Virus record (IMG/VR): IMGVR_UViG_3300035188_001379
Coordinates: 96,001 to 160,000 of that record
Reading direction: 5' to 3' (one strand)
DNA: 64,000 nt
DNA from: a virus
Shown: positions 29,575-61,853 of the stretch, in pieces
Position numbering within the stretch: position 1 is the first letter of the stretch
Layout of the letters: each line of letters begins with the position of its first letter
The notes under the pieces: generated by a model
Database searches by the model: none
Seen by the model: the letters and a program-made list of their open reading frames with translations, nothing else
Told to the model about the DNA's origin: nothing
Translations under genes and position numbers: made by a program

Positions 29575-30035
29575 AATAGAAATTTATAGCATATAGCTAT
29601 AGGCTACTGTTCCAAGCATGCTAAGAAAGTATGCAGTGAGTCACGACTAAACAGGGCTAACTATGCTGAGAATAGTATAAGGTTCGATCTGCCAAAGAGG
29701 TCCGAAGTATGCTATGATAGTATACAGCCTTGGGATACAGGCCAAAGTCGAATAACACATATCCCCAAAAGCATGCTATGTAAGTATGCAGTACGGTTCA
29801 CCGCTAAACGGGAGCAGTCTAGGAGTAAAGACTCAGCAGTGTATATTCGCAATTTAGAATATACAAAACTGCTACTCACTGCGCTATACAGCGAAAATAG
29901 CCCGATCGCTTGGAGAGGCGGAATGGCGTGGCACACACGTCTAAATACAAGTGTGTAGACTAGTGGACAGTCTGGAGTCCGTCCACTGACGAAGCAGGCT
30001 CTCGTCATGTCATATATAACAAATAGTTATATATG
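29575..30035 (+). ncRNA. large structured non-coding RNA candidate
   Basis: About 460 nt without a credible ORF in an otherwise gene-dense genome; own promoter; many hairpins, a thrice-repeated hairpin motif and three long-range helices. Confidence 0.6.
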
Positions 30036-30446
30036 ATAAAACCTGCAGCTTTTCATATGAAACCCATGAAACAGGAGAGAGTCAGAGTAGTACTTCCTTA
30101 CCTAGAAGGCTATCTTCTAGAAAGGTTAAGCAACCCAAGATGGCCTATGAACATGGGTAAAACCAGACATGTAGGCGGAGGAATAGAGAACAATGAAACC
30201 CCAGAACAGGCAGCAAGCAGAGAGCTGTTTGAGGAGCTCGGAGTAACTATACCTCCAGCTTCTTTTGAGAAACTTGGTTCCCACGAGAATCAACACTATT
30301 TGATCGTGAAAGATCATGGTCTTGTTCCTGGTGTGTATAAAGCATCTGTAGGCTCAGATGAGTATATACATCTTGTAGCAGGAGATCTCAAGGAAGCTCA
30401 GTATATCGGCCCTAGACTAGAAACCCTAACCCAACCCACACAATGA
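30033..30446 (+). CDS. Nudix hydrolase
   Basis: GGGIENNETPEQAASRELFEELG = Nudix box. Confidence 0.9.
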   Translation: MIKPAAFHMKPMKQERVRVVLPYLEGYLLERLSNPRWPMNMGKTRHVGGGIENNETPEQAASRELFEELGVTIPPASFEKLGSHENQHYLIVKDHGLVPGVYKASVGSDEYIHLVAGDLKEAQYIGPRLETLTQPTQ

Positions 30447-30916: not shown

Positions 30917-30959
30917 AAACCCCGCCTCGATTCTGAGGTGGGTGGATCTTTTTTTTAGC
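30917..30959 (+). terminator. GC-rich hairpin + GGATC-T8-AGC (near copy of 29486)
   Basis: AAACCCCGCCTCGATTCTGAGGTGGGTGGATCTTTTTTTTAGC. Confidence 0.75.
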
Positions 30960-31129: not shown

Positions 31130-31576
31130 ATGCCGGCAGAATCAAAAGCACAACAAAGACTAATGGGTATGGCGCTAGCAGCTAAAAGGGGTAAAGGAGA
31201 GTATAGCGATAAAGTAAAAGAGCTAGCTGATAGTATGAGTGAAAAGCAGCTTATGGAATACGCTAAAACTAAAATTTCAGACCTACCCGAAAAGAAAGCA
31301 TTCATTCTAGGTTTTGTAAAAAAAGCCGAGGAATATAGCATATCTAAAAGCAATGCTCTCGAATTGCTGAAAGAGGCTGCCCCTGCTCTCAGAGCGCTGC
31401 AAGAAGTATTAGGTAGTTCTGCAGGGAGAGCACTTATGGAGGGAGTCGCCGATCCAACTAGAGCGGCTCTAGCAAGAGGTAAAGTTTCAGGACAAGATCT
31501 TATGCTAAGACGCAGGCTAGCTGATACTGCTAAAAAACTAAGAAGAAAGTTTAACACAGACCATACGTCATTTTAA
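31130..31576 (+). CDS. DUF3008-like domain + GFVKxA module protein
   Basis: MPAESKAQQRLMGMALAAKRG...SMSEKQL (DUF3008-like, from memory), then AFILGFVKKAEEYSIS. Confidence 0.7.
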   Translation: MPAESKAQQRLMGMALAAKRGKGEYSDKVKELADSMSEKQLMEYAKTKISDLPEKKAFILGFVKKAEEYSISKSNALELLKEAAPALRALQEVLGSSAGRALMEGVADPTRAALARGKVSGQDLMLRRRLADTAKKLRRKFNTDHTSF

Positions 31577-31594: not shown

Positions 31595-33703
31595 ATGAAC
31601 TACAACACACCTATTAGAGACGTTTCAAACCCTGTGATTAACGCAGGGCTTGAAGCTTTATTTGGCAAGAATCTTATTCCTTCAAGGCTTGAAGGAGAAG
31701 ACATGATAGACGCTCTTAATAGGCGAGATCGTACACTAGCTTTTAGAGAGAGTGCTGCAAACAATTTTGCAGATAATCCAATTGTTAGCCGCCTAGGTGA
31801 AAAAGGGTCTAAAGCCTTGGGTAAAATGGACGCACTCTCCGGGGGCAAGCTCAGCGGTTTCTTGAGTCCTATGCTTGGCGGTAACACATATAAGGCTACA
31901 GAAAATGTGCATAACATGCTGCACAATCCTGCAGCTATGAGTGCTTTTGGTGGAGGAAATCACAATTCCGAGAATATTATGAAGGCATTACACAAGAACT
32001 TCTATAAGCATGCCGAGAATGCTTCTTTAGCGGGTAGCTATATTAATCAGAACATAGGAGAGCTACCAACCATCAAAGAACCGGAGAGTATTTCTTTTAC
32101 ACCTGTAGACAATGGTAAGAAAGTAGGGATGGGCTCAGGCTCTAGCACTTTTGCTGGAAAAACACCAGTACAACATGCTGAGCACTATCCTAGTCGCAGT
32201 GCAGATAAAGCTATCCCAAGAAAGTCTGGTAAAGCCACAATCTCAAAAATACCTATGGGACGTATGCCTGCAGCTATGAGTAAAATGGCTCTAGATGATA
32301 AGAGTGACACACACACCTATAGAATGGAAGGTAACGTGCAAGGAGTAGGTTTGCGTAAAGCTCTACATAAAATACTTGAGGAAAATAGACTCAATGGGCT
32401 TGCTGTGAACTATCCAGAAACAAACGAGGTATATGCTACCATACAAGGAAGGAAAAAGAGGATAGATCAGATTCTTGATGAGCTTAAGGCCCGTCTGGCG
32501 GTGAGAGAAAAAAAGCCTCTGGCTTACGGAACAGACTATAGCATCGAGCACGCTCCAGCCATGAAGGAAAGGATGCGTAGGGTTGTATTTACTCCAAAAG
32601 ATATAGAGGTGTTTGAGCAAAACAATCCTGAGCTCGATAAATTCAAAACAGTAGATCTAGAGAATAAACTCAAATATTTTGAAGACCGCTATAGGCTACA
32701 TAGAGACGCTCGAGGGAAGTTGAGAGGCAGTCTGCCCAATAAAGCCATAGACCAGTTGTTTAATGGTGCTCCTGTGTATCACAGACAGGTATTAGCGCGT
32801 AACGAGAATAACGAGAAAGCTGCGTTCTTTACAGGCTTTCTCAAAAGAGCTGCAGAACATGGCTTTAGCCGCGAGGACACTGTAAAGCTTGCTGCTACAT
32901 ATAAAGAAGCAGTGGCACTTTCAGGAATAGGGAAAGCTTTCGGCACAAAAATGATGCCAAAAATATTTAACATGGCTCGCGGAGCTTTTGGCAGTCTTCG
33001 TTCACTAGGTTCTAGTGTACCTGAGGGGCCTCTACACACTGAAAGAAATGCAGCGTTAGAAGCGGGAAACAAGTTTATTGAAAACTTCAAACCTGAAGGT
33101 TTTCGTATGTACGCAGGTCGAGTAAAAACACCTGAGAGTCTTGCTGGGCATGGAGGAGGGGTTACAAACGACTTGCTAGGTATTAGAATGAGGCCTAGCA
33201 AGGGAGGCTATACTCAGGAAAGCGCAGACAACCTTGTAAATCAATTAAGACAGGCAGGGGTAAATGTAAGTGGGCAGAAAAAACTTGTAAGACCTGGGTA
33301 TCACGGCTGGAACATAAAAGGAACATTGCCTCACGCTACTGGGGATGTACCTATCGAAGTGCAGATGACTCCGAGAAGAATGCAGGGCATATTTGCAGCG
33401 AACCATGCGTATGTATACAAGCCAGAAACATCTGGAGTCTCTCCAGCGGTATCAAAGGGCATCTATGACCCAGCATTAAACTATGTGACAAACGTGCTTT
33501 CACCGATGAGTAGCCCAGCCAAGAGAATAGGTTATGGTGCTGCCGGGGTAGGTGCGCTAGGTACAATGGGCGGTGTTGGCTATAACGCTGTAAAAGGACC
33601 AAATAACGCAGCGCAAAACAATGGAGAAGCCTTCAATAGTCAGGCTATATATGATAGAGTTCAGACTAGTCCCGCTAGCTATCTAGCTCAGCAAACAAGA
33701 TAA
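31595..33703 (+). CDS. modular protein: acylphosphatase-like + GFxKRA module + RelA/SpoT-like domain
   Basis: EGNVQGVGLR (acylphosphatase); GRVKTPESL, DLLGIR, GYHG, EVQM, H...YK (RelA_SpoT synthetase motifs). Confidence 0.75.
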   Translation: MNYNTPIRDVSNPVINAGLEALFGKNLIPSRLEGEDMIDALNRRDRTLAFRESAANNFADNPIVSRLGEKGSKALGKMDALSGGKLSGFLSPMLGGNTYKATENVHNMLHNPAAMSAFGGGNHNSENIMKALHKNFYKHAENASLAGSYINQNIGELPTIKEPESISFTPVDNGKKVGMGSGSSTFAGKTPVQHAEHYPSRSADKAIPRKSGKATISKIPMGRMPAAMSKMALDDKSDTHTYRMEGNVQGVGLRKALHKILEENRLNGLAVNYPETNEVYATIQGRKKRIDQILDELKARLAVREKKPLAYGTDYSIEHAPAMKERMRRVVFTPKDIEVFEQNNPELDKFKTVDLENKLKYFEDRYRLHRDARGKLRGSLPNKAIDQLFNGAPVYHRQVLARNENNEKAAFFTGFLKRAAEHGFSREDTVKLAATYKEAVALSGIGKAFGTKMMPKIFNMARGAFGSLRSLGSSVPEGPLHTERNAALEAGNKFIENFKPEGFRMYAGRVKTPESLAGHGGGVTNDLLGIRMRPSKGGYTQESADNLVNQLRQAGVNVSGQKKLVRPGYHGWNIKGTLPHATGDVPIEVQMTPRRMQGIFAANHAYVYKPETSGVSPAVSKGIYDPALNYVTNVLSPMSSPAKRIGYGAAGVGALGTMGGVGYNAVKGPNNAAQNNGEAFNSQAIYDRVQTSPASYLAQQTR

Positions 33704-33710
33704 TTTAAGC

Positions 33711-36700
33711 ATGAATAAAATTGGAGATAACGCAGAAGCCTCAGCACAACCGTTTGCAGGTAGAACTCAGCCGTTTGCTAATAGTGAGATATCTGCAGAA
33801 AGCGCAGCAATAAACACGAATAGGAGCATTCAGCCGGGTACAGGGGCCATAGCTGACTCTGCTCCTAGTGTTTCTTCTAGAAGTTTAAAAAAAACTCCAG
33901 GAGTTAACACTAATATCACAACTCCTCCGCCTAGAATTCCTGAAGCTCAACAAAAAGCCTCTCCTGCTGGCGCTGTGGGTGCCGCTGGAGGAGTTGTGTC
34001 TGCTTTTGGCAGACGAGGAGGTGTAATAGGTGCTGCAACTAATCTTGCTTCTGAAGATGTGCCTGGCGCTGTATCTAACGTAGCAAGAGCTGTGAGCCCA
34101 AAATTGAATGTATTTTCTAGAGCATTAGACGCAGGCAAAAAACTGATTAAAGGCAATCCTGTAGGTGCAGGACTTGAGATGGCAGGAGCTGTAGTGCCTG
34201 TTGTGCCTGATCTAATAAATACAGGAAAAGATTTCATAAATCAGATCGACGAGCAAGCAGAACAGAATAGGCAATTTAATAAGAGAAACAGAGAGGTGCG
34301 TGGAAGTCTAGAGGCGCGTAATACTGGGATAGCTGATGTGGACGGCAATATCTTTGTGAACACCAATGACGCTGTGCTTCTAGATAAATTAGGCTTTGAG
34401 GTTGCAGATTACGATCTGCTGGAGAAGACGAGCGAGGTGCTAGACCTATACTCGTATATCGAGAAAGTGGCAGAAGTTCCTAGAGAAGTAGCTAAGCTCA
34501 TAGACGAAGGCAAAGCGTTCAGTGCTGAGTATCTTAAGGAAATGGAGTATAACGTACCAAAAGGCTACGAAGTAAAAGGTGACCTATGTTGTCCTTCTGA
34601 GAAGACTGAAAAGGAGAAAAAGCGTCTCTCTGAGAAGACTGCTTCAATTCAAAAACAAGCTGTAAACTTTGGGCAGATAGCAAAGGCTATAGGTGCAGGT
34701 GTAAACAAAATTGCTCCAACTGTGGCAAATGCAGTGCACAGTGCTGCTCCTGCTGCTGCAAAACAAAAAGCAATTGTTAAGCAATTTCAAGACCCATCTA
34801 AAATAGGATTTAAAAGCGTATATCCTACCGAGCCAGTTATGCCTGCAGGCACAAATCCAAAAAAGTGGAGAGCAGATGTAGCTGAGGGGATGCAGCAACA
34901 CCAAACTCTAAGCAGAATAAGACAAGACTCTTCTGGACACCAAGCCGCTTTTAGTTTCAATGCTCCGAATTCGTCGGGGGTAGATGAATTGCATAATGTC
35001 TGGGTGCATCCTGAAATGATACATACAAATCAGCAAGGTAAAGGGCTTGCAGCTCATGACAGACAGCTTGTCAATGCACTCATTGAGAACACTCAAACGG
35101 GGCAGAAATGGGCACAGCCAATGTACAGGTCTACCGGCACGAATAGTGAGCATACAGTAGGACAGTGGCTACCAACCAGAGGATTTGGTGCACCTAGTGA
35201 AGACTGGGTTAACGCAGTAAAAACAAAAATAAATCCAGAATTTGAAATGCCTCAACCGGTACCTGGAGTTTTACCGCAATTTGTAGGACCCAGCAATCAA
35301 GGGCCAGGAGGATTAAAAGGGCCAGGTTGGCTTGGTAAATATCAATTTAATCCTAGCACACAACAGTGGATGGTGCATGACAAAACAGACGCAGGAGTTA
35401 ACGCTCTTATGCCTGTATATCAAAGATTGCGTGAAGCAATGGGAGAGTATATGGGAAATATTGGGCTAGCTAAGCAAGGATCTGAGAAGTCTGCTTCTGA
35501 AAGTAAGCCTGGGCTATGGGCAAATATTCATGCAAAGAGAAAGCGTGGAGAGAAAGCTGCTAAACCTGGAGATGAGGATTACCCAGATAAGAAGCAATGG
35601 GATAAATTGAGTAAAAAAGGAGAAGCCGATCCAGAACAGTCTATATTGATCTCAGGTCACAGTGGTGCAGGAAAGAGTACGCTCGCGAAAGAACTATCTA
35701 AATTACTAGATATGAATCTACGTAGGGTAGATGCACACAAAGGATTTAGTGACTATGTTAAAAAAGACCACGAACACTGGGAAAAGTCATTGTCTGCTGG
35801 AACAAAAGAGTACGAGAGGTTTAATAAAATTATAAATAACGCTAATAGACACGTGCTGAGAAATGCTCCAGAGGCTTCAATTATCGAAGGCACTCAACTA
35901 GGTCATCTTTCTCCAGAAGAACTCAGCAAGTTCAAGGCACACATTCTGGTAGGAGGTACTCCAGAACAGTCTATAATGCAAAGAATAGCTAGAAGCGCAA
36001 AAAAGAAAGGTGTCGAGTTCTCTCCAGAAGAAATTGAAGCTAGGAGAATAAAGGCAAAGAAAGTGGTAGACTTCTGGGAGCCTGGTATTGAAAAGTTCAG
36101 AAAGCTGCCAGGGACGCTGCAATATAATCACACAGAGCATGAGGTGGAGCCTTTGGTAGAACAACTGCGTGCACTAATGAGCAAGCAGGCAGCATCTGCA
36201 GCATGGCAGCGCAGTGAAGGCAAGAATCCTGAAGGTGGATTAAACGCTAAGGGCAGGGCTAGCTATAAGAAGCAAACAGGAGGCACCCTCAAAGCTCCAG
36301 TAACAGAGAGTAACCCGTCTGGTGAAAGGGCTAAGCGTCAGAATAGCTTCTGTAGTCGCATGTGTGGAATGAAGAGTAAGAACACGGGCAGCAAGGCTCA
36401 GAGCGATCCAGATAGCCGCATCAACAAATCGTTACGTAAGTGGAACTGTAAGTGTGGCGAAGATCACAGTTCATTGTTCGAGAAAATAGCCTGTAACTTT
36501 AAAGAAGCTAAGAGTAGGTGCTGGGAAGGCTATGAGCCTGTTCCTGGTAAAGATCCTTATAGTGAAGACAGTTGCAGACCTAAGGGCAAAAAGAAAAAGA
36601 TAGAAAAGAATGCCTCTACCGCTTGGAAAAAGAGACTTCGCACAGGTAAGCTGAGCGTCGATGGAGTTAACGCGATACTGCGAAGTAGTGGGCTGAGTTC

Positions 36701-37637
36701 AACTATGTCGCCTGAAAGTTGGCACAAGAGTCTTTCCGATCCTAGGTATTCTAAGGGAATACTGTATGGGCATAGAGAGAGAGGAAAATCGGAAAATGTA
36801 TTTAATCGTAAATATACCGTGCAACCTTTTAGTGAACAAGAACATTTGGATCGTCTTGCGCGAACCAACTTAGGCTCTCTAGCTAGGGAGGCGGCATGGA
36901 GGCATCCGGATAGTATATATCCCTACTATAAAGCTCATATGATGGATACTCGTGCAGGACAGGATGCTCAAGCAGTAAAAGAAACAATTAATGAACTATC
37001 GTATGATTCTAAGCAAAAGCGTTATATGCGAATTCTTCAAAAAATGTACGATAAAAGAGAGAAAATGCCCACTAGCCGTAAAAAATTTTTAAGCGATTCT
37101 TCTGACTACCCTAGAGAAAACTGGCGCGGCATGTCTCTACAGCAAGCAAACGACTTGCTCGACAGTGCTGGGCAAACTGGGAATCATGGTCCGCAGGCAG
37201 TTCCAGACTTAAATACGATTGCTGGTCCTGTGGGTGTAGGGCAGCCAATCACCAGGCATGAGATTTCTCATCTAGTGGATCGTAATATGCCACAAGCTCA
37301 ACGGCTAGCTGTTTTGAAAGAACTGCACCAAACACTTAAAAGAAATCCTGAAGTTATGCGAGGTATACTTAGATATAAAGATCCGACCAAGGCTATATCT
37401 GAGTCTTTTGCGCAATTGATAGGTAGCAGAGGCAATTCAAATTCAGCGAAAAGGTTTATTGACTCATATGTTGACGCTGCAAAAAATTCAAAAATATGGG
37501 ATATGCAGCAAATACTTCCTAAATTACTTGAACGTGATCCTTCTGGGCGAGACGCTGCCGTTGTTTCTCAGTTGATAAGAAGATACGGCCTTAGGTTACC
37601 TGATTACGCGCGACACCAAGGCGCTCTACCTCTATGA
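33711..37637 (+). CDS. 1308-aa multi-module protein (P-loop kinase-like, small cyanophage-type domains, zincin-like domain)
   Basis: GHSGAGKST; GLWANIHAKRKRG; AAWQRSEGKNPEGGLNAKGRASY; CWEGYEPVPGK; RHEISH; modules joined by K-x-A motifs. Confidence 0.75.
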   Translation: MNKIGDNAEASAQPFAGRTQPFANSEISAESAAINTNRSIQPGTGAIADSAPSVSSRSLKKTPGVNTNITTPPPRIPEAQQKASPAGAVGAAGGVVSAFGRRGGVIGAATNLASEDVPGAVSNVARAVSPKLNVFSRALDAGKKLIKGNPVGAGLEMAGAVVPVVPDLINTGKDFINQIDEQAEQNRQFNKRNREVRGSLEARNTGIADVDGNIFVNTNDAVLLDKLGFEVADYDLLEKTSEVLDLYSYIEKVAEVPREVAKLIDEGKAFSAEYLKEMEYNVPKGYEVKGDLCCPSEKTEKEKKRLSEKTASIQKQAVNFGQIAKAIGAGVNKIAPTVANAVHSAAPAAAKQKAIVKQFQDPSKIGFKSVYPTEPVMPAGTNPKKWRADVAEGMQQHQTLSRIRQDSSGHQAAFSFNAPNSSGVDELHNVWVHPEMIHTNQQGKGLAAHDRQLVNALIENTQTGQKWAQPMYRSTGTNSEHTVGQWLPTRGFGAPSEDWVNAVKTKINPEFEMPQPVPGVLPQFVGPSNQGPGGLKGPGWLGKYQFNPSTQQWMVHDKTDAGVNALMPVYQRLREAMGEYMGNIGLAKQGSEKSASESKPGLWANIHAKRKRGEKAAKPGDEDYPDKKQWDKLSKKGEADPEQSILISGHSGAGKSTLAKELSKLLDMNLRRVDAHKGFSDYVKKDHEHWEKSLSAGTKEYERFNKIINNANRHVLRNAPEASIIEGTQLGHLSPEELSKFKAHILVGGTPEQSIMQRIARSAKKKGVEFSPEEIEARRIKAKKVVDFWEPGIEKFRKLPGTLQYNHTEHEVEPLVEQLRALMSKQAASAAWQRSEGKNPEGGLNAKGRASYKKQTGGTLKAPVTESNPSGERAKRQNSFCSRMCGMKSKNTGSKAQSDPDSRINKSLRKWNCKCGEDHSSLFEKIACNFKEAKSRCWEGYEPVPGKDPYSEDSCRPKGKKKKIEKNASTAWKKRLRTGKLSVDGVNAILRSSGLSSTMSPESWHKSLSDPRYSKGILYGHRERGKSENVFNRKYTVQPFSEQEHLDRLARTNLGSLAREAAWRHPDSIYPYYKAHMMDTRAGQDAQAVKETINELSYDSKQKRYMRILQKMYDKREKMPTSRKKFLSDSSDYPRENWRGMSLQQANDLLDSAGQTGNHGPQAVPDLNTIAGPVGVGQPITRHEISHLVDRNMPQAQRLAVLKELHQTLKRNPEVMRGILRYKDPTKAISESFAQLIGSRGNSNSAKRFIDSYVDAAKNSKIWDMQQILPKLLERDPSGRDAAVVSQLIRRYGLRLPDYARHQGALPL

Positions 37638-37993
37638 ATCAAGGAGATCTAAGCGGACTGAAACAGTATGGGATAGATGTAGGCCTTTTAATCAGCGGGC
37701 TGTTTGGGGCTATCCTTTTAACTAGCAAGGGAAGCGCTATGAATCTTACTCGTACTGTGAGCAGCCTTGTAGGAGGAGCAGCTAGTGCAAACTATATTAC
37801 ACCTATCGTTGTTAATATGGCCAAGCTAGACGATACACACTACCATTATGGTATAGCATTTCTATTGGGTTTTCTTGGATTAAAAGGTATAGAATATTTT
37901 AGCAGCAAGCTAATTCCTGAAGTTGCTCACGAACCAGAGCCTGTGCGCGCTAGACCAAGAAAAAGAAAACCCGCAACAAGAAGAAGAAAATGA
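37634..37993 (+). CDS. holin-like three-TM protein
   Basis: Three hydrophobic helices, GIAFLLGFLGLKGIE, basic C-terminal tail. Confidence 0.6.
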   Translation: MNQGDLSGLKQYGIDVGLLISGLFGAILLTSKGSAMNLTRTVSSLVGGAASANYITPIVVNMAKLDDTHYHYGIAFLLGFLGLKGIEYFSSKLIPEVAHEPEPVRARPRKRKPATRRRK

Positions 37994-38361
37994 CTACACC
38001 AGCAGTAATCAATGCAGTTGCAAATTGCACTACCGCTTTCTCAGCTCTAGCGCTACTTATTCATATTTTTGGAGACCCTGACAACAGTGTATGGGACAAC
38101 AATATCAAAGCATGGTTAGCCAAGTCAGGCTTATCCGTAGTTGTCTGTGGAGCTATAGCGAATGTGCTCACCCTAAGCTCTCCAGCAACATCAGAGATAG
38201 TACTCAACTGCGGCATGAGTCTTACATTTTTCTGGCTTAGTTGGTGGCAGTGGGAGATGTTTAAAGAGATGCAGCGAGAGAGCGAGCGTAAAAGAATTGC
38301 TAGAAATAAAAGAAATACAGTTAAAAAACAAACAAAGCGTAAACCAGCAAAAACAGTATGA
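37990..38361 (+). CDS. multi-TM membrane protein
   Basis: 3-4 hydrophobic segments, basic tail. Confidence 0.6.
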   Translation: MTTPAVINAVANCTTAFSALALLIHIFGDPDNSVWDNNIKAWLAKSGLSVVVCGAIANVLTLSSPATSEIVLNCGMSLTFFWLSWWQWEMFKEMQRESERKRIARNKRNTVKKQTKRKPAKTV

Positions 38362-39392
38362 ATCTAGAAGATTTTAAAAACGGATGTAACAAGCAAAAAG
38401 AAGACTCTAGAGACAGAGTCTATAAGCCAAAGATCGTTCATTGGACGCATCTCAATGATATAGATCTTCGGAAAGATTGCAGCGCACCTAGAGCTCAAGG
38501 AAACATTGGTTCGTGTACTGCTTTTGCTGCCACAAGCATGTTTGATTTTGTGAGAAGGAAAAACAGCATGGTGAGCTGGCAGCCTAGTCCTCTTTTCACA
38601 TACTACGCCACACGAAAAGCAGTAGATCCTGTACTAACAGATTCTGGAGCAACTGTACGAGACGCTCTTAAAAGTGCCGCAAGAGATGGAGTAAGTATGG
38701 AGCGGGTATGGCCATATATCGTTGAGAAGTATAACGAGCATCCGCCAGAAGAGGCGTGGAATATTGCAGAAAAGCATCAGGCTCTCGAGTATCTAAAGCT
38801 CAATGACTTTGATAAGAGCGAATGGCTTAACTGTCTCCATGAGGGATATCCTTTTATATTTGGATTAAACCTATATGCGTCTTTCTTTGATCCTTTCATG
38901 CAGCTTCTTGGAGGATTCATGCTAGATCCTGATAGAGAAAATGAAAAGCTTGTGGGCGCACACTGCATGATGGCTGTTGGTTATATTAAGAACTACAATA
39001 ATAAAGAGTATCTCATAGTTCAGAACAGCTGGGGCACTGGTTGGGGAGACGGTGGTTATTGCTATATTCCACTAAGCTATATCATGACTAACGATAGCTT
39101 TGATTTCTGGACAATTAGACTTACAGAAACTAGCGACGAGTACGCTAGCGATCCTATCGAAGAGCCTAAGCCAGAACCAAAGCCTGAGCCAGTTCCTGAG
39201 CCTGCGGTAGAACCTCCTGCTCCTGAACCTGAACCTATAGTAGAACCTCCCTCTCCTGTTGTAGAGCCTGTTGTAGAGCCTGTCGCACCGGCCCCGGCGG
39301 TAGAAGTAGTGGAAGCTAAGCGCAAAAACCTACCATTCTATATAGTAATGGCTATAGGTGTGCTACTCTTACTTGTTTTTATTTTTGGATAA
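38358..39392 (+). CDS. papain-like (C1A) cysteine protease with PE-rich linker and C-terminal TM
   Basis: QGNIGSCTAFA (Cys), GAHCM (His), QNSWG (Asn); PEP repeats; hydrophobic C-terminus. Confidence 0.9.
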   Translation: MNLEDFKNGCNKQKEDSRDRVYKPKIVHWTHLNDIDLRKDCSAPRAQGNIGSCTAFAATSMFDFVRRKNSMVSWQPSPLFTYYATRKAVDPVLTDSGATVRDALKSAARDGVSMERVWPYIVEKYNEHPPEEAWNIAEKHQALEYLKLNDFDKSEWLNCLHEGYPFIFGLNLYASFFDPFMQLLGGFMLDPDRENEKLVGAHCMMAVGYIKNYNNKEYLIVQNSWGTGWGDGGYCYIPLSYIMTNDSFDFWTIRLTETSDEYASDPIEEPKPEPKPEPVPEPAVEPPAPEPEPIVEPPSPVVEPVVEPVAPAPAVEVVEAKRKNLPFYIVMAIGVLLLLVFIFG

Positions 39393-41573: not shown

Positions 41574-41831
41574 ATGACCCCCGAAGAAGCATATATCGAA
41601 GGATTCGTGAAAAGAGCAACACAGTATGGACTTAGTGAAGCTGAGGCATTTGAGCTGTTAAAAAGCGCTGTCGACCAAGATGCAGTAGCACAACCTGGTA
41701 TGAGATCCGCTACGGCTAAACCTGGTCCTGAGCGTTACGTACCTCCAGCTCCTCCTACTGGTGTGCCAGCAGTCTCGCTTGACTCTTTAGATAGTCGTAA
41801 AAAGGGTCCCGTAGCGCAAAGAAGAAGATAA
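41574..41831 (+). CDS. small GFVKRA module protein
   Basis: AYIEGFVKRATQYGLSEAEAFELLKSA. Confidence 0.7.
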   Translation: MTPEEAYIEGFVKRATQYGLSEAEAFELLKSAVDQDAVAQPGMRSATAKPGPERYVPPAPPTGVPAVSLDSLDSRKKGPVAQRRR

Positions 41832-41835
41832 GCGT

Positions 41836-43107
41836 ATGAACAGACGCGAATTCCTTTACACTGGTTTGTTCGGTGGGTTAGGAATTGGTATGGGAGATCT
41901 GTTCAGACTAAGAGCTGAGTCATCTCTAACTGCGAAGGCCGCGTCTGTTATTCATATTTTCCTGCCTGGAGGAGCAGCAGCGCAGGAAACATGGGATCCT
42001 AAAGTAAATGCTCCTTCAGAGTATCGTGGGCCGCTAAAGAGTATTCCTACAGCTATTCCTGGGATACACTTTAGCGAGCACATGAAGAATACAGCTAGAG
42101 TAGCTGATAAGATCACTCTTGTGCGCTCTATGACTCATGGCGAAGCTGCTCATGAGCGGGGTACCACCAGCATGTTTACAGGCTATAAGCCTAGCCCTGC
42201 TGTAAACTATCCTTCGTTTGGTAGCGTTGTGTCTCATGAGCTTGGAGGCGCTAATAATTTACCTGCATATGTATGCATCCCCCAAAAAATCAATAATAAT
42301 GGTAACGATGTCGCTGGCAGTGGTTTTCTCTCTAACTCGTATGGTCCTTTCAGTCTTGGATCAGACCCGGCGAGTAAAGGGTTCAAGGTAAGAGACCTTG
42401 ACTCTAATGTGAGCGCTGATCGCTTTGAGCGTAGAAAGAGTATACTTGAAACAGTGGACGGTCATTTCAAGTATATGGAGAGCACTGACGCGTTGGTGTC
42501 GATGGATACGTTCTACCAGCAAGCATATGCTCTGCTTAGCTCTGAGAAAGCTAGAGCAGCATTTGATCTGACAAAAGAAACAGCAAAGACCAGAGAAGAG
42601 TACGGACTCTCTGAAGCAGGCCAAAGATTTCTTATGGCTCGTAGGCTTGTAGAGAGTGGTGTGAAGTTTGTGAGTGTCACATATGGAGGGTGGGACATGC
42701 ACAACAATATAGGTGTACAGATAGATAAGCAGCTTCCAGCTTTTGATAAGGCTTACGCGGCCCTGATTAATGATCTTGATCAAAGAGGAATGCTAGAGAA
42801 TACACTGGTGATGGTAAGCAGCGAGTTTGGACGCACACCTAAGATAAATATGAACGCTGGGCGCGATCATTGGCCTAGAGTGTTCAGCGTTGCATTTGCT
42901 GGAGGAGGATTCAAGAGAGGGCTTGTGTACGGAACAAGCAGTGTCACAGGCGATGATGTTGACAGTAACCCTCTGTCTGTAGAAAACCTTGCAGCTACCT
43001 TGTATCATCAGCTAGGTATCAACCCAGAAGGCTCTCTTATGGCTGATGGTGGACGCCCTGTAAAGATTGTGTATAATGGTACTGTGATGCAAGAACTATT
43101 AGCATAA
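41836..43107 (+). CDS. DUF1501 family protein with Tat signal
   Basis: MNRREFL; SVIHIFLPGG..QETWDPK; ARRLVESGVKFV; GWDMH; SEFGRTPKIN..GRDHWP. Confidence 0.92.
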   Translation: MNRREFLYTGLFGGLGIGMGDLFRLRAESSLTAKAASVIHIFLPGGAAAQETWDPKVNAPSEYRGPLKSIPTAIPGIHFSEHMKNTARVADKITLVRSMTHGEAAHERGTTSMFTGYKPSPAVNYPSFGSVVSHELGGANNLPAYVCIPQKINNNGNDVAGSGFLSNSYGPFSLGSDPASKGFKVRDLDSNVSADRFERRKSILETVDGHFKYMESTDALVSMDTFYQQAYALLSSEKARAAFDLTKETAKTREEYGLSEAGQRFLMARRLVESGVKFVSVTYGGWDMHNNIGVQIDKQLPAFDKAYAALINDLDQRGMLENTLVMVSSEFGRTPKINMNAGRDHWPRVFSVAFAGGGFKRGLVYGTSSVTGDDVDSNPLSVENLAATLYHQLGINPEGSLMADGGRPVKIVYNGTVMQELLA

Positions 43108-43109: not shown

Positions 43110-44471
43110 ATGAGCGACTGTGGTAATCATCCTTCTTTCTCTAGCCGAAGAGAATTTCTAAATGATTTTGCATGGGGTATGGGCGGCTTATCGCTTGCCT
43201 CTATTCTAAATTTTAGTACTCATACGCTAGAGGCTAGCGGAGCACTAGGAGCAAAGAAACCGCACTTTCAACCAAAAGCAAAAGCAGTAATTCAATTGTT
43301 TGCTAGTGGTGCTCCTAGTCATGTAGACACTTTCGACTATAAGCCAGAGCTGCAGAAAAGAGATGGAGAGAAGCACGATTATGGAAATCTGCTAGCTTCT
43401 CCTTTTGAGTTTAAAAGATTTGGTAAGTCTGGTATACACTATTCTGAAGTGTGGAGCAAGCTTGCCGGTCATGCTGACGACATCGCAATAATCAACAGCA
43501 TGCAGACTCCAATACCTGACCACGGTATTGCTAGCAAGTTCCTACACACAGGAAGCTCTCAGTTGAGTAAGCCTAGTCTTGGTAGTTGGCTTGTATATGG
43601 GCTAGGTACATTGAATGAGAATATGCCAGGGTTTATCTCGTTAAACTCTTCTCCTGAGTCTAGGCAGTGTGCATTTCTTCCTGGGATGTATCAGGGTTGT
43701 AATGTGTCCTATCGCCAAGGCATGAATCCTAACGAGATTCTTGCAAATCTACGTAGCGAGTTCAGCACAATAGAAAGACAAAGAAGGCAGATCGATCTAG
43801 CTAGAAGTCTGAGTTTGGATCATATGAGCAAGCTGCAGAAAGACACACAGCTCGAGGCCAGACTAGAGTCTTTTGAAACTGCGTTTAAGATGCAGACCGA
43901 AGCCACTGACGCTTTTGATACGAGCAAAGAGAGTGAAGCTGTTAAAGACTTGTATGGCAGAACAGAAGAAGGCGCAAGAATGCTTGTGGCTCGTAGACTT
44001 GTAGAAAAAGGAGTACGGATGGTTCAGGTAAATGTAGGAGGCTATGATCACCACTCTGATATTAAAAATGCTATGAGTAATACGGCTCGTAGATATGATC
44101 AGGCATTTTCTGCGTTGCTTACAGATTTGAAGCAAAGAGGATTACATAAAGACGTACTTGTTGTTTGGGGTGGAGAGTTTGGTAGAACTGTAACTAGTGG
44201 AGGAGGTGCAGGTGCTCCTGGCAGAGATCACAACGGTAAAGCTTTTAGCGTCTGGATGAGTGGCGGTGGAGTGCAAGGAGGACAAAGATATGGTGAGACT
44301 GATGAGATAGGAGCTAAAGCTGTAAAAGACGTCACAGGCATTCATGATCTGCACGCTACAATTTTACATCTGATGGGGTTTGACCACACAAAGCTTATCT
44401 ACGAGTATAACGGAAGACCGTTCAGGCTTACTGATGTATACGGTGATGTGATTAAAGAAATCACAGGCTAG
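43110..44471 (+). CDS. DUF1501 family protein (second subfamily) with Tat signal
   Basis: SRREFL; HFQPKAKAVIQLFASGAPSHVDTFDYKP; WGGEFGRT; GRDHN; HDLHATILHLMGFDH. Confidence 0.92.
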   Translation: MSDCGNHPSFSSRREFLNDFAWGMGGLSLASILNFSTHTLEASGALGAKKPHFQPKAKAVIQLFASGAPSHVDTFDYKPELQKRDGEKHDYGNLLASPFEFKRFGKSGIHYSEVWSKLAGHADDIAIINSMQTPIPDHGIASKFLHTGSSQLSKPSLGSWLVYGLGTLNENMPGFISLNSSPESRQCAFLPGMYQGCNVSYRQGMNPNEILANLRSEFSTIERQRRQIDLARSLSLDHMSKLQKDTQLEARLESFETAFKMQTEATDAFDTSKESEAVKDLYGRTEEGARMLVARRLVEKGVRMVQVNVGGYDHHSDIKNAMSNTARRYDQAFSALLTDLKQRGLHKDVLVVWGGEFGRTVTSGGGAGAPGRDHNGKAFSVWMSGGGVQGGQRYGETDEIGAKAVKDVTGIHDLHATILHLMGFDHTKLIYEYNGRPFRLTDVYGDVIKEITG

Positions 44472-53750: not shown

Positions 53751-56700
53751 ATGTCTAAAACTTTTACAAATATCACTGTCAACGTCGGTAATGGGGCAAT
53801 AAACAACAGACCTATCGTTAATGGGTCTGCAGTTATCGCTACAGGAGGCAGAAACAATGCTACAGTAGCAGGATCTGTGGTACTCAACGGAGGGCTTAAC
53901 TCTAATACAGCGGTAGTCACTGGCACACTCACCATAAACAGTGGAGCAAACAATGCCCCTGTTGTAGGTGCAGCCACAATTAGCGGAGGAACAAACACTG
54001 GAACAATTACAGGCCCAGCCACAATTGATGGAGGAGACAACCTAGGTGCAATCGCAGGAGCAGTTACAATCTCTAGCGGAACTAACGCGGCAGCTATTAC
54101 TGTAGGACCTGTCACAATCAGTGGAGGCTCTAACTCTGGAACCATCGCTGCAGCAACGGTCATCAGCGGTGGCGCTAATTCTGGAGCAATTACTGGCGCT
54201 GTTACAATTTCTAATGGAACAAATACAGGAGCAATTACAGGCCCAGCGACAATCAGTGGAGGGTCTAACTCTGCACCTATTACAGGAGCTGCTATAGTTA
54301 GTGGAGGAGATAACTCAGGAGCTGTTACAGGAGCTGTCACAATTTCTAGCGGAACTAACTCTGGGCCTGTAACAGGACCAGTTAATATCACTGGAGGAAC
54401 AAACACAGGAGCAGTCGCTGGAGCAGTTACAATCAGCGGAGGCTCTAACTCTGCAGCCGTTACCGGCACAGTTCTTGTGAGTGGAGGAACAAATACAGGC
54501 ACTGTAACTGGTAGTGTGCGTGTCACAAATGGCGGCACACAGAACGGGCCAGTGGTCGGTAATCTCTATATAGAAGCAGGGGGCACTATATCTGGCGATA
54601 CAACTATTTCTGGAGGAGGGAAAGTTTATGCCGCTGCTAACGTAGATACGGCTGCGGCTCTGTCGCTAATTCCAACTTTTACAGGTACTGTAGTACAGAC
54701 AACGCAGAACGGAGTACTTACGTCAACCACCTACACAGGGGGAACACCTGGAGCAACTGCGCCTGTTACAGGGATTTTCTATAATCTTGAAGGAGGCAGC
54801 AACGCAGGGAAAGCTTATAGCTATAACGAGCAAGGTGAACCTACGCCAGTCAATACGCCTAAGTTCAATCTTACAGGAGACGGTAAGGCTTATAACTGGA
54901 ATAACGGCGTCAAAGGGAGCTTGTTTACTGGTGTTATCGACGGTGTTACCTATACAAACGGTGTTGAAGGTACTGGAGGCGGTGGTGGAGGTGCTTCTTA
55001 CAATGAATACGCTGTAACCTTTGAGGGCAGCTCAGGTACGCTTTATACGAGTTTGAGCGATACAGTCACCTCAGGCACTGTTTATAGCGACTCCGCATTG
55101 AATCTTCCATTCACAGGGGCTTTTGAATACAACTCTGTTTGGTATTATGCTGACGCTGGTGTACCCAACACCTACAGAGCTTATGGTGTATCGGGCGATA
55201 CCAACGGAGGTGTACTTTACAGCTATCCAGTATTTAACGCAGAACCTGACGAGTTTATCTACACCAACACAGCGCTCACAGCAAAGTACACCGGAGAATA
55301 TCAATACCAGGGAGTGTTTTATTACGCTGAAGACGGTGTGGTAGGACAACTTAAACCTGTCACAGTAACAGGGGACAGTAATGACGGAGTACTGTATATC
55401 GCTGCAGACAGCGGTATTTCGGTAGGAGCGACAGGCTCTCCTGTGTTTACAGACTTTACAGGAGATACGCCGTACGAAGGGCCATTTGTATATAACGGAG
55501 CTTATTTCCGAGCAAACAATGCCGGGGCTTGGACTGCTTTTGATGGTGTAGCGCAGGCTGCTATTAACGGCTCATATTATAATGTAGTTAATGGCAGCTT
55601 AGACTTAGCTTCGACAAACTACGCTGTTGGAGTTAAATTATTTTTTGCTGACAACAGGTACTACACTTTTGATGGAGATGGTTTAGCTGGAATCGCTTTT
55701 AATGGGGCTGTAGACGCAGAAAACTCGTGGTATGAGGTTGTAAACGGGCTCTCTGTGGGGTTGTTTAATGGTATAGCCAAAGACGCTGATAATAATTATA
55801 TCAAGATTACCAGCGGCAGTAACGTGGGGCAGAACATCCCTGATGGAGGCCATAAATTTGCTGAAGACGGACTTTACTACTTATTTGAAAATGGGCAGCT
55901 TGTTCGACTCTTCGAAGGCGGTGCACCGGGAGCTAACGGCACGTACTACAAAGTAGATCAAGGGGTTTTGACTTCAAATGTTTTTGCAGGCGCAGGCTAT
56001 AACCAATGGGGGCAAGCCATGGATTTTAATGGAGGCCTGAGCGGAATTGCGACAAGAGGCTATAAGCAGCTTGTAAGCGACGGCAGACATTATTACTTTA
56101 ATACCATCTATGGCGGTGGCCCTGCTATTAAGCAAACCGTAGCTATACTTACTCCAGATGGCTATCGTGTTGCAGACGACGGTTTTGTAACAGACGAAGT
56201 CTTTTCTGGATTATACCAGGAGTTTTTTGATGCGGGTCAGTATGCCGACGGCTCGCGATATCTGATGATTAATAATGGTAGTGGCGGTATTTTTAGTGGT
56301 ACTGCTTACGACCAAGTCACAGGCTTAGTTCTTAAAATTGTGAACGGCGAGTCTCTAGGAGGACACACCTCGGTGTTTGCAGACAGCTATATTGATGGGG
56401 ATGGTGCGTTTGTAAACTATAATATATCTGAGCTCTATGAGGGATATTATTATAATAATGGTCTTCCTTATAACGGGTTAATTGGTTTCAGTACCCCTGT
56501 AACTGATGAATATAACGTAGTCGTAGGTACGTCACAAGGGGCAGGGTCTTTTGCGTTTTACTTGGGCTGGCCTGAAGGGGAGATTGCCTCAGGGGCTACG
56601 GCAAAATGTACGACAATATCTGTAAGCGCTAACGGCAACGTGATGACAATTGCAGGTGACGTGGACTATGGGGGTCTTTCCTCGTATCCGTCAAAAATGG

Positions 56701-59700
56701 TCCTGTACAATGCTCAGGTTTCTGGCAACGTGCGTGCCATCGCTAACGGTAATAATTTAATGGGGTCTCCTGCAGGTGTGGGCGGCGACTTCAATTGTAA
56801 CAATCTCGGTATTACTAGCCTAAAAGGCGCCCCAATTACCGTAGCGGGAACCTTTAATTGTTCATACAACTATCTCACTAGCTTGCAATATAGCCCAACT
56901 GCTGTAGGAATCTTCAATTGCTTTCACAACCAGCTCAACAGCTTGCAAGGTGCTCCAGCTGTGGTCAACGGATTCAATTGTGGAATCAACCAGCTCGCCA
57001 GCTTGCAAGGTGTTCCAGCTACGGTATACGGAGATTTTGACTGCTCAGGTAACCAGCTCACCAGCCTGCAAGGTTCTCCAGCAACTGTAACAGGAAATTA
57101 CATTTGCTCCAACAATAGCCTCACTAGCTTACAGGGTGTTTTAGCTAGCGTACAGGGAGATTTTGACTGCACTACCAATCAACTCACTAGCCTGCAGGGC
57201 GCTCCAGCCATGGGCGGGAACGGGTCCTTTTACTGTAGCGACAATCAGCTCACAACCTTACAGGGAGCTCCTACAGAAGTACGGGGTAACTTTATGTGTG
57301 TTGGCAACCAGCTCACCAGCTTGCAAGGTGCTCCGGCTGTGGTACAGGGTGTATTTAATTGCTCTGATAATCTAATTACTAGCTTGCAAGGAGGACCAAC
57401 TAGCATACCTGGAGTTTACAATATAGGTCAGTACATTTGCGCCAACAATCAGCTTACTAGCTTACAGGGTGCTCCAACTACAGTAATTTTCTATTTTGAT
57501 TGCGGCTACAACCAGCTCACTAATTTAGTAGGCGGCCCTGTAACTGTTCTTAACGGCTCCTATAACTTCAGCCATAACCCCTTATTGACCAGTTTGAGTG
57601 GGTCCCCAGACAATGTAAATGCAGGTACTGTCTATTATAACAACACAGGATTAACATTACCTACAGTTGCCGCCTCTGTCGGAGGAACCTTGTTTATATA
57701 TTCTGTAAGTGGTGTTGGACGCCAGGCTGTAGCGGCAACTGGAGGAACCCCCACAAGCTTTGCTTACTACCTCGACGGAGTATTGAGTAACTCGTTTACA
57801 ACAACCACTCCTACAAAAGCTGTAGATAACGGAAATTTTTACACCTACACTAACGGAGTACCTACTTTTGAAAAAGCAGGAGTTATTGCAGGTAGAACAG
57901 TGACATATTCTGACGGACAGTATCGTATTACTGGCGACATTTCGATCCAGTCGCAGATGGCCCAGCTACCTGACTTTAGTGGTATACACTTGAATGGAAG
58001 TTTCTATTGTGGCGGTAAGGGACTTACAAGTCTACAAGGTGCACCAGCACAAGTTACTGGGAGTTTTCATTGCCAGGGCAACCCTATTACAAATCTACAA
58101 GGAGCGCCATCGTATGTCGGTGGAGATCTTGTCTGCGGAGAATTTGCGACGTTTACGAGCCTGCAAGGAGGACCTACCACTGTCGGCGGTTACTTTAGGT
58201 GTCGTAACAGTCAAATTACCAGCTTACAGTACGGCCCAACTACCGTAGGAGGTGATTACATTTGCGACAACAATCAGCTTACTAGTATACAGGGAGCTCC
58301 TACATCCTTAACTCGTGTTTTCCTTTGCAACAACAATCAAATCACTAGCTTACAGGGAGGACCAACAGGGTGGATATCTGGTTATAATTGTTCCTACAAT
58401 CAGCTCACTAACTTGCAGGGTGCTCCGTCGAATATAGGTGAAGGCTTTAATTGCAGCAATAACCCGCTAACCAGTTTACAGGGCGCTCCTGGCACTGTGT
58501 TAAACTTTGACTGCAGTTATACAAACATCACTGGCTTAGATATGGGGCCATTGCAAGGAATTCGCTCGTATACTTGCACAAATACGAAGATCACCTCATT
58601 AATCGGAGCCCCTAGTGTGGTGGGTACCGTAAATTCATCTAACCCCGGAGGATTCTATTGTAACAATAATGCGTTCCTCACCACGCTAATCGGTTCACCA
58701 CATACAGTATATGGTGCGTTTAGCTGTCATAGCTGCAGTAGTCTCACAAGCTTTCAAGGAGCACCTGACACAGTTACAGGGCTGTTTAACTTTACAACTT
58801 CAGTAATAAGCTTGCCTAAGGCGTTCTTGACTGCCACAGAAAAGGCTGCAATATACGCTGCATCAGGAGTAACCAGATTATCCCCAAACCCATCAGGATC
58901 TCTTCTAAGTATAGGTTACTTTACCCCTTCAGGGCGAGACGAGAGTTACTCAAGCACTGTCCCACAAAAGGCAGAAGATTCCAATTATTATCTGTATTCC
59001 AACGGCTACGCTATTTTTGATAGAGTGGGTACGGTGGCAGGGATCGAGCTACAATACGCTAATGGACGATACGAGACCATTGGTAGTGTAAGCTTGTCAA
59101 ATAGAGGATTGACTGCTTTGCCTGACTTCACTGGCGTACACATTAAAGGGTCGTTCAGTTGCAATAATAACTTACTTACTGATTTACAAAAAGCACCAGC
59201 AAGCATTCAAGGAGATTTCAACTGCTCCTATAATCAGATCACTTATCTGCGCTGCCCCACTACTAGCGTTGGAGGAGCTTTTAATTGCGGTAATAACCCA
59301 CTTATTAACTTATACGACATGCCTCCAGTAATTTCTGGAGCAGTACAATACGCTAATACACCGAATGTAACACCGTTACCTGGGCTGCATCTTGACAACA
59401 CAGGTGTGTGGTGGATATATAACGCTTCTAGGACTGGTCGAACTCTAGCTATTCCTGCTACAGGTTCGAGAGCTCTAAGCATAGGTTATTATGTAAATGG
59501 TGAGCTAGCTACAAGTTACACGTCAAATACTCCTACAAAAGCAGAAGATAACAATTTCTACACATACAGCCAGGGAAGTCCAAATTTACACAGAGTAGGC
59601 ACGGTTGCTGGGTATGTTTTGGATTACGAGGCAGGAGAGTATGTTTATAATGGTAACGTTGATTTGATGTCTCGCGGACTAACCTCTTTACCTAATTTTA

Positions 59701-60455: not shown

Positions 60456-61853
60456 ATGCGTGTAACTATACCTAAAGAAATAAAAGAAAACCTGGAACAG
60501 CTGACCAGCGTTATGATTAACCTGGATGATGTAGCTACTCCAGGCAGAGTCATACCGCAGATTTTACCAATAGCTTACGTAGCGCAAAACGATTATGCCG
60601 AGGTACTAGACTATTTGTGGCAAAGTTGCTCGTACATAAGGTACATAGTTAAGTACAAAGACGGCACAGAAAGCATTATCAGTTTTGATTCTAAAGAAAA
60701 AGCGGCATACACGCAAACAGCCAACAGAAGCGAACGGGAGGTTCACGGTTTTGATGAAATTAATCCTAGAGAAATGCTCGGTTGGTATTTTGGACGCCCG
60801 CCGCGTGAGTACAGTTATAGCAAAGCGAACATCGTTAATGGTGAATTTTTAGATGCGTTAGATTCTTGTAGGCTTATTAAAGGAATCGAGCTGCCCGCTA
60901 CAGGAGTTTTTCGACTCAAGAACGGAGTGGTGTCTTCTAGGGGATTAGTTTATTCTTACGACCTAAGACAACGCTATTTAGAGCTATCTAGATTCTCATC
61001 TTTAGATGAAGTTAACAAAGACGAGGCTGAGCTAAAAATTTATCTAGGTAAAAAACTAGATCGACTGTGTCCAAACACATCGGCCAGGTACTATAAAGGT
61101 AGAGCATTAAATCTATACACATTCTTCAGTAATTATAATTTTTGTCACGGGTTTTTAGATGTATGTGCACTATTAAGCTCTTGCTACTCAGTAGGTATTG
61201 ATTTTAAAGAGTTTGATTGGTTTGTGGTACCTGAAAATAATTTTAGTCTTACCCAAGGACTTTTCGATAGACTAGGTATAGATAAAACAAAAAAGCTAGT
61301 CACAGGCGAAATTAAAGTAGAGGACAAAGTACAAGCGAGAGACTATAGCTTGATGTTTGATGAGTTAGTCACGCCTTCTTTTGATGGCTTTTGTGGCTAT
61401 TATGCTCCGCATGCTTTCGATTTTATCAGATATCTTTACGCAGATGAACTAACCGCACTAGGAAAACGTAGAAAAATTTATCTGAGTCGGGAAGGCTCAG
61501 TTAGAGGAGTGAGTAATGAGCAAGATCTTATCGAACTTTTAAAGAAATATGGCTTTGACGTGGTAAATAGCAGCACGCAAGCTAATATTCCTGAACTAAT
61601 GAGTAATGCGTCTGTCATTATAGGCGCTCACGGAGCAGCGATGGCTAACTGCGTGTTTTGCTCTCCAGGCGCTCGGCTTATAGACTTGCTTCCTGCGGGC
61701 TATCCTTATCCGTATTATATGAGCTTGGCTGACTCGGTTGGGCTAGAATATACGGCATTTGTATGTAAGTCTAAAGGTAAAGGCGCGGCAACTAAAGCTG
61801 ATTTTATGGTAGATATTCCTAGGTTGAAAGTGTTTCTCGACCAGACTTTATGA
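60456..61853 (+). CDS. glycosyltransferase family 61 (DUF563)-like
   Basis: NYNFCHGFLD; KIYLSR...R.VSNEQDL..LLKKYGF; IIGAHGAAMANCVF. Confidence 0.85.
   Translation: MRVTIPKEIKENLEQLTSVMINLDDVATPGRVIPQILPIAYVAQNDYAEVLDYLWQSCSYIRYIVKYKDGTESIISFDSKEKAAYTQTANRSEREVHGFDEINPREMLGWYFGRPPREYSYSKANIVNGEFLDALDSCRLIKGIELPATGVFRLKNGVVSSRGLVYSYDLRQRYLELSRFSSLDEVNKDEAELKIYLGKKLDRLCPNTSARYYKGRALNLYTFFSNYNFCHGFLDVCALLSSCYSVGIDFKEFDWFVVPENNFSLTQGLFDRLGIDKTKKLVTGEIKVEDKVQARDYSLMFDELVTPSFDGFCGYYAPHAFDFIRYLYADELTALGKRRKIYLSREGSVRGVSNEQDLIELLKKYGFDVVNSSTQANIPELMSNASVIIGAHGAAMANCVFCSPGARLIDLLPAGYPYPYYMSLADSVGLEYTAFVCKSKGKGAATKADFMVDIPRLKVFLDQTL

Follow-up and report, generated by a model that had tools for sequence, protein, structure and literature searches.

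Open reading frame (ORF) 31595–33703, on a 64,000-nt stretch of DNA (here ‘the window’) covering bases 96001–160000 of the 184,465-bp IMG/VR virus record IMGVR_UViG_3300035188_001379 (rated 94% complete), encodes a 702-aa protein in which two unrelated enzymatic folds are joined. Profile comparison and a predicted structure confirm residues ~476–641 as a very divergent RelA/SpoT homologue (RSH) of the synthetase type with its catalytic residues kept, and upstream of it lies an acylphosphatase-fold module. The whole is probably an effector-type protein of modular build, from a tailed phage of ~184 kb that is as yet uncultured, and combines a divergent RSH synthetase, likely with an adenosine acceptor, with an acylphosphatase module. 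An original prediction, made from the letters of the sequence, had proposed a RelA/SpoT-like synthetase fused with an acylphosphatase-like domain here; the peptide strings that it quoted all lie in frame +1 of the ORF (Table 1).

The RSH domain was recovered with a family profile and a fold search where direct family searches failed. Searching the C-terminal segment for PF04607, the check that had been proposed, gave no match to Pfam RelA_SpoT, and no family in NCBIfam or PHROGs matches the C-terminal domain either; a single-sequence phmmer search of this domain against the PDB gave as best match a glyoxalase at E 1, which was taken as chance. An exhaustive HMMER search with residues 456–645 against 1.84 billion representatives returned a family of 33 clusters, and a profile built from 20 of these matched the PDB sequences 3l9d_A (E 5.7e-5), 2be3_A (2e-3), FaRel2 (2.3e-3) and YjbM (9e-3), its alignments to the PDB small alarmone synthetases (SAS) and to FaRel2 running motif for motif. 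Pfam RelA_SpoT directly matches two of 31 relatives (best E 2.2e-5) and not the protein itself, so that the link of the 702-aa protein to this Pfam family is transitive. A template-free AlphaFold2 (AF2) model of the domain (predicted local distance difference test, pLDDT, 93.3; predicted template modelling score, pTM, 0.87) was then compared with known structures. All eight PDB matches found by VIA-align at Z ≥ 8 are RSH synthetases, with generic nucleotidyltransferases at 7.8 or below; the best is SAS2 (6fgk_A, Z 12.3 over 155 aa at 3.3 Å), and the others include RelP (11.7), SAS1 (11.7), an exported SAS (10.2), Rel (9.6), CapRel (8.6) and Tas1 (8.5). Foldseek likewise places SAS2 and SAS1 (E 6.6e-5) at the top, and the nearest ESM-Atlas cluster, which we treat as a lead only, is a viral RelA_SpoT cluster (0.89, 173 shared features). 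Between the profile matches to SAS and FaRel2 and the RSH fold, the RelA/SpoT-like assignment holds.

Conservation in the active site follows the same pattern. The syn motifs stand in SAS order (R-x-K-x-x-x-S, D-x-x-G-x-R, G-loop Tyr, E-x-Q and H-x-x-x-Y-K), with R509, K511, S515, D526, G529, R531, Y569, G571, N573, E588, Q590, H604, Y608 and K609 as key residues. In FaRel2, the ATP base is contacted by R64, R95, Q147 and G93, with adenosine specificity coming from E145, the triphosphate by R64, K66, S70, K74 and R77, Mg by D90, and the acceptor base by the G-loop tyrosine Y128 (PMC11782079). In the profile alignment, FaRel2 R64, K66, S70, D90, G93, R95, Y128, E145 and Q147 fall on R509, K511, S515, D526, G529, R531, Y569, E588 and Q590, respectively. 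Three of these (R509, K511 and D526) are conserved in 31/31 relatives and four more (S515, Y569, E588 and Q590) in 30/31, at an overall identity of just ~25–35%. The synthetase fold and the catalytic Asp and Glu, on whose presence the original prediction had staked itself, are both there, Asp and Glu being conserved.

For residues 242–299 we regard as solid, on sequence and model alike, the assignment to an acylphosphatase-fold phosphohydrolase module in which the Arg and Asn that bind phosphate are intact. Pfam Acylphosphatase (PF00708), the second proposed check, matches these residues above threshold (E 1.6e-7; 32 bits against a cut-off of 22.5, and 33.7 bits in a six-frame search), which bears out the acylphosphatase-like part of the earlier reading. 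For a template-free AF2 model of residues 228–455 (pLDDT 84.8), the best Foldseek and VIA-align matches are acylphosphatases and the HypF acylphosphatase-like domain, spanning the whole ~90-residue fold (1w2i_A, Foldseek E 6e-4; 4hi1_A, Z 9.3 over 86/88 residues; 1gxu_A, Z 8.5). In a set of 18 relatives, Asn272 is invariant and at least 90% have the loop Arg254; the two correspond to the catalytic Asn41 and the phosphate-loop Arg23 of vertebrate acylphosphatases. The module thus shares with acylphosphatase and the HypF N-terminal domain the full ferredoxin-like fold (beta-alpha-beta-beta-alpha-beta) and the conserved V-Q-G-V-G-x-R loop and Asn, but differs from them in its fusions (to RSH, 2H, Nudix plus kinase, or GNAT) and in always running on into a conserved ~80-residue extension with an invariant R-Y-x-L block. 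Being conserved, this extension hints that the module may act on a substrate other than carboxyl phosphates, or on one besides them.

The RSH-domain family is rare and, so far, apparently virus-only. Its members were found on six IMG/VR contigs, the present one included; no relative turned up when 185,579 prokaryote genomes were pattern-scanned twice, and tblastn of the whole 702-aa protein against 50,697 phage records gave no match, so that no cultured relative carries it. The five viral contigs examined have one terminase family in common, and the nearest cultured terminase is merely 30% identical. Within the family, the RSH domain is a mobile module that occurs alone (about 200–270 residues) or fused to DUF6321, P-loop kinases, MazG (in P0006), a 2H-SAK phosphoesterase or, most often, the acylphosphatase module. 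Acylphosphatase–RSH fusions are present in at least nine proteins (P0004, P0005, P0006, P0010, P0012, P0014, P0024, P0027 and a protein of contig L003), with the order of the two reversed in P0012 and P0027 and with DUF6321 as a third domain in the L003 protein; on the 86-kb contig L001, the acylphosphatase module is a separate gene 2.7 kb upstream of the RSH domain. Our literature search found no mention of acylphosphatase together with alarmone synthetases. As for other hydrolases, the original prediction had seen no hydrolase antitoxin next door, and this extends to the whole 184-kb genome, where no HD_4 or HD domain, and hence no HD-type hydrolase, was found. The candidate phosphohydrolases near the synthetase are therefore only the fused acylphosphatase module and a Nudix protein encoded upstream.

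How the protein reaches its site of action is less clear-cut. It had been described as a virion-delivered K-x-A polyprotein, and two kinds of indirect evidence hint at the head. First, K-x-A occurs within 15 residues before acylphosphatase strand 1 in 14/16 relatives from other contigs (background 0.09) and within 45 residues before the RelA/SpoT-like domain in 21/29 relatives (background 0.25); the sequences are related, so nominal P-values overstate the significance of these counts. Stand-alone RSH members have 10–25-residue leaders that end in K-x-A, and we take these leaders to resemble the capsid-targeting leaders of T4 internal proteins. Second, a 30-residue module, usually bracketed by K-x-A, is present in seven copies in the genome where shuffling gives an expectation of 0.08. 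Four copies (window positions 32825, 41008, 41592 and 46810) lie in the gene cluster of ORF 31595–33703, and three (genome positions 11115, 12252 and 16029, outside the window) belong to the head operon, where they flank a homologue of the prohead protease; this homologue was recognised by a match to phrog_18299, the prohead-protease families Peptidase_S78 and S77 giving none. Given these features, the 702-aa protein may be delivered by the virion and processed at K-x-A, and we put its packaging in the virion at an even chance or somewhat less.

A contending explanation, itself just short of an even chance, is that the protein is not packaged or injected at all, but is made in the infected cell and acts there as one among several auxiliary enzymes that handle nucleotides, with K-x-A and the 30-residue module as linker or assembly features that have nothing to do with capsid targeting. 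Its gene is separated from the terminase by ~70 kb and from the head operon by ~110 kb, is followed by the gene of a 1308-aa modular protein and then a holin-like gene, and its product contains no MuF, portal-binding or known ejection-protein domain that Pfam or PHROGs could find. Terminase linkage, too, is limited to two fragmentary contigs (L006 and one other), where a stand-alone RSH gene stands beside the terminase and a giant RNA-polymerase-like protein; we rejected it as a conserved feature, since the genes are adjacent in these two contigs but 70–100 kb apart in three near-complete genomes. What a purely cytoplasmic enzyme fits poorly is K-x-A ahead of both unrelated folds far above background, the leaders of the stand-alone members that end in the same motif, and the excess of the 30-residue module, with three of its copies around the prohead-protease homologue. 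The giant protein of L006, a 50-kb fragment of a related phage, is a 1960-aa product (L006:80-5962) that matches several multisubunit RNA-polymerase beta-type PHROGs, and its gene lies 4 kb upstream of the stand-alone RSH gene and terminase.

For the synthetase, the acceptor is most likely an adenosine, judging by the motifs. Guanosine 3′-pyrophosphokinases have S-x-H at syn3, which is described as recognising guanosine, whereas the (p)ppApp synthetase Apk2 has G-x-N (PMC12226406). Here syn3 reads Y-x-G-x-N and not the Y-x-S-x-H of guanosine enzymes (G571 in 29/31 and N573 in 28/31 relatives), so the S-x-H guanosine-recognition signature is absent from positions 571–573, and an adenosine acceptor is favoured because the motif is that of Apk2. 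Among the possible acceptors, ADP or ATP, with (p)ppApp as the product, is the one that we would name, at somewhat under an even probability.

Several observations weigh against an adenosine-directed synthetase working with an acylphosphatase partner. The Pfam RelA_SpoT model misses both the 702-aa protein (E ≤ 1) and the genome in six frames (E ≤ 10). The helix that follows R-x-K-x-x-x-S (after syn1) does not reach the length that it has in SAS and FaRel2 and is without equivalents of K74 and R77, syn4 reads E-x-Q-x-[ST]-P instead of E-x-Q-I-R-T, and R531 is replaced by Gln in about half of the family. The closest structures are the (p)ppGpp-making SAS1 and SAS2, not Tas1, and swapping syn motifs failed to make Apk2 a guanosine enzyme (PMC12226406), which makes motif-based acceptor calls weak. 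Regarding the partnership, the majority of RSH-family members are without the acylphosphatase module, and the module is also found without RSH, with 2H, with Nudix plus kinase, or with GNAT.

It is also conceivable, although we think it rather unlikely, that the acceptor is A76 of tRNA, the domain being a tRNA 3′-CCA pyrophosphokinase like FaRel2, PhRel2 and CapRel that blocks aminoacylation and halts host translation. FaRel2 is among the profile matches and CapRel among the structural ones, the acceptor of those enzymes is likewise an adenosine and so compatible with G-x-N at syn3, and the 2H-SAK phosphoesterase and P-loop kinase domains of some relatives suggest work on RNA ends. The RSH domain is also basic across the family (median pI 9.8, net charge +7), which fits RNA binding but is not specific for it. 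However, nucleotide-making SAS enzymes are structurally closer (Z ~12 against 8.6 and 5.8), the N-terminal tRNA-recognition region of FaRel2 has no alignable equivalent, and a block of all tRNA charging would stop phage translation as well, unless it were reversed.

Guanosine nucleotides as acceptor we hold to be improbable, and equally so an ordinary (p)ppGpp synthetase with which the phage imposes or tunes a stringent-like state. The best structure and profile matches (SAS1/RelQ and SAS2/RelP) do make (p)ppGpp, and MazG and Nudix genes, abundant in marine phages, could trim such nucleotides, MazG being fused to the RSH domain in P0006; yet the guanosine-recognising S-x-H is G-x-N in 28–29 of the 31 members, and the I-R-T of syn4 is replaced too. 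Least credible of all is that the domain has lost catalysis and serves in binding or as a structural part. One could cite for this the divergence beyond the reach of Pfam, the shortened triphosphate-binding helix and the altered syn4, but the FaRel2 ATP, Mg and acceptor-base residues would then hardly be kept in 30–31 of 31 relatives at ~25–35% identity, a pattern expected from purifying selection on an active site.

The RSH domain would bind ATP-Mg through R509, K511, S515, D526, E588 and Q590 and would move the beta,gamma-pyrophosphate to the 3′-OH of an acceptor held by stacking against Tyr569 of the G-loop. Use of ADP or ATP, the favoured acceptors, would yield (p)ppApp and drain ATP, tRNA A76 being the second choice, and the acylphosphatase module may act on the same phosphorylated product or pathway as the RSH domain. 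The original prediction had such an enzyme acting before any phage transcription. In its fullest form, the idea would be that the two modules are a phage-specific hydrolase/synthetase pair, loaded into the prohead by way of the 30-residue module, cut at K-x-A by the prohead protease and passed into the host along with the DNA as free enzymes, which there make and limit a 3′-pyrophosphorylated adenosine product before phage transcription; we rate this complete chain as improbable. The HD/SYNTH pair of long Rel enzymes would be its analogue, with the HD domain replaced here.

Compared with SAS1/RelQ and SAS2/RelP (PDB 5DEC, 6FGK, 6EWZ), the phage domain has the same single-domain synthetase fold (Z 11.7–12.3 over ~155 residues) but is 14–19% identical, below Pfam detection, and differs in syn3, in syn4 and in the shorter post-syn1 helix. 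It also sits in a 702-aa modular protein, and its family is found only on viral and metagenomic contigs. The toxic SAS (toxSAS) enzymes FaRel2, PhRel2 and CapRel (PMC11782079; PDB 8PU4, 7ZTB) align with it one to one in catalytic and ATP-binding residues and share the basic domain and a part in phage–host conflict. Unlike them, it has no recognisable antitoxin, pseudo-ZFD or Panacea domain next to it, its neighbours being DUF3008 and kinase/DUF6321 proteins; the structural match is weaker than that to SAS1/2, and the N-terminal tRNA-recognition region is not alignable.

Among phage proteins, RelA-like toxins fused to MuF have been predicted to ride in the phage head (PMC5576092), and Apk2, a group of (p)ppApp synthetase toxins that temperate phages carry fused to MuF (Bartoli 2023; PMC12226406), has been shown to make (p)ppApp (PMC12226406). 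Apk2 resembles the present protein in being an RSH-type domain on a phage protein thought to travel in the head and in its G-x-N at syn3, and Tas1/Apk1 (PDB 6OX6) is a structural match (Z 8.5). In contrast to both, the 702-aa protein has no MuF or PAAR carrier domain and is encoded a long way from the head operon; the genome has neither an immunity gene of the IapK or Aph1 type nor any HD domain, and at syn2 G-[ILMF]-[RQ] takes the place of R-Y-T. The phage, too, differs from the temperate phages that carry Apk2 in being large, probably lytic and uncultured. RelA/SpoT domains were described in 2017 in the polyvalent proteins of phages and conjugative elements (Iyer, Burroughs, Anand, de Souza and Aravind; PMC5512222), which are likewise multidomain phage proteins stringing together unrelated enzymatic modules. 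The present polypeptide has two enzymatic modules and the shared 30-residue module, and its relatives shuffle kinase, MazG, 2H-SAK, Nudix and DUF6321 as polyvalent proteins do; on the other hand, acylphosphatase has 0 occurrences in that paper, none of the anchor domains that it used (MuF, Alt, DarB, ArdC and others) is present in the 702-aa protein, and the RSH branch goes undetected by the Pfam model.

The general idea of phage-borne RelA/SpoT enzymes is therefore already known from these three papers (PMC5512222, PMC5576092, PMC12226406). What is new is an RSH branch that has diverged beyond the reach of the family model, the confinement of this branch to a lineage of large phages not yet in culture, and the way in which it keeps occurring together with a module of the acylphosphatase type. 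Only a few of the RelA/SpoT-type enzymes of phages, which are predicted to be host-takeover or toxin modules, have been characterised so far. The present branch adds to the sequence space known for pyrophosphokinases, and through its pairing it hints at a possible partner enzyme that is not of the HD type. For the question of whether large marine-type phages load enzyme cargo into their heads, K-x-A and the 30-residue module single out a concrete protein.

Table 1. Features of ORF 31595–33703, its motifs and its immediate neighbours; nucleotide positions refer to the window, residues to the encoded protein.
Feature	Position (nt)	Strand	Residues	Remarks
Nudix hydrolase gene	30033..30446	+		Pfam E 4.8e-10
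Terminator-like hairpin	30921..30942	+		9 pairs + T run; between the Nudix unit and the unit of ORF 31595–33703
DUF3008 protein (P0003)	31130..31576	+		directly upstream, same unit; degenerate copy of the 30-residue module
Whole ORF (P0001)	31595..33703	+	702 aa	single copy in genome
N-terminal region	31595..32275	+	1–227	common only to one 76%-identical relative, P0004
S-K-M-A (K-x-A)	32279..32290	+		directly before acylphosphatase module; K-x-A conserved in relatives
Acylphosphatase-fold core	32306..32590	+	~238–332	Pfam match 242–299; Arg254 and Asn272 conserved
YRMEGNVQGVGLR	32318..32356	+	242–254	quoted string
GLAVN	32396..32410	+	268–272	quoted string
Conserved module extension	32591..32824	+	~333–410	invariant D-R-Y-R-L block (364–368); no known family
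30-residue module	32825..32911	+	411–439	[FY]xxGF[LIV]xxAxxxG ending Y-K-E-A; one of 7 genome copies
Divergent RSH synthetase-type domain	33020..33517	+	~476–641	fold, family profile, conserved residues
GRVKTPESL	33116..33142	+	508–516	quoted string
NDLLGIR	33167..33187	+	525–531	quoted string
GYHGWN	33296..33313	+	568–573	quoted string
IEVQMT	33353..33370	+	587–592	quoted string
NHAYVYK	33401..33421	+	603–609	quoted string
Gly/Ala-rich hydrophobic stretch	33530..33598	+	646–668	G-Y-G-A-A-G-V-G-A-L-G...; follows RelA/SpoT-like domain, kept in closer relatives
Modular protein (P0002)	33711..37637	+	1308 aa	directly downstream; P-loop kinase (AAA_18) + DUF6321

The remaining parts of the protein are less informative. 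The N-terminal region matched no family in Pfam or PHROGs, and no MuF was found in it. In the search with residues 456–645, a distant metagenomic match, P0018 (700 aa), in which the first 50 residues of that query segment are matched in 11 separate stretches, is a repeat protein built of the helix region at the N-terminal end of the segment, and its Pfam matches look spurious. The Gly/Ala-rich stretch behind the RSH domain could be a glycine zipper or a membrane segment.

ORF 31595–33703 sits within a run of co-oriented genes (Table 1). The Nudix gene that had been placed 1.1 kb upstream does end 1149 nt before the ORF, but it belongs to the preceding unit and appears to be in a separate transcription unit because of the terminator-like hairpin between them. 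In the downstream neighbour P0002, AAA_18 covers residues 645–766 and DUF6321 residues 837–911; in relatives, both of these domains are fused to the RelA/SpoT-like domain, and P0006 joins the N-terminal part and kinase of P0002 to the acylphosphatase and RelA/SpoT-like modules. DUF6321 is common in cyanophages and pelagiphages, with 516 phage records matching, a few of them annotated as structural. Two minus-strand ORFs (33351–33602 and 32779–33201) were considered as a nested immunity gene and, after a brief check, judged to be shadows of the coding strand; they have TTG starts and an odd composition rich in Leu, Ser, Cys and His, and no consistently placed minus-strand open frame exists in L003, L011, L005 or L006.

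Immediately 3′ of the 1308-aa protein gene, the region 37634–39392 holds the holin-like gene (phrog_2359, E 1e-12), then a small ORF and a papain-family protease (Peptidase_C1, E 1e-12), with overlapping stops and starts. Farther on is a tandem DUF1501 gene pair (41836–43107 and 43110–44471; Pfam E 1e-112 and 1e-127), a family unusual in phages, the first gene having the in-frame copy of the 30-residue module at 41592 ahead of it. The 2195-aa ORF 53751–60338, in which no Pfam family was matched, adjoins a Glyco_transf_61 glycosyltransferase gene at 60456–61853 (E 4e-20).

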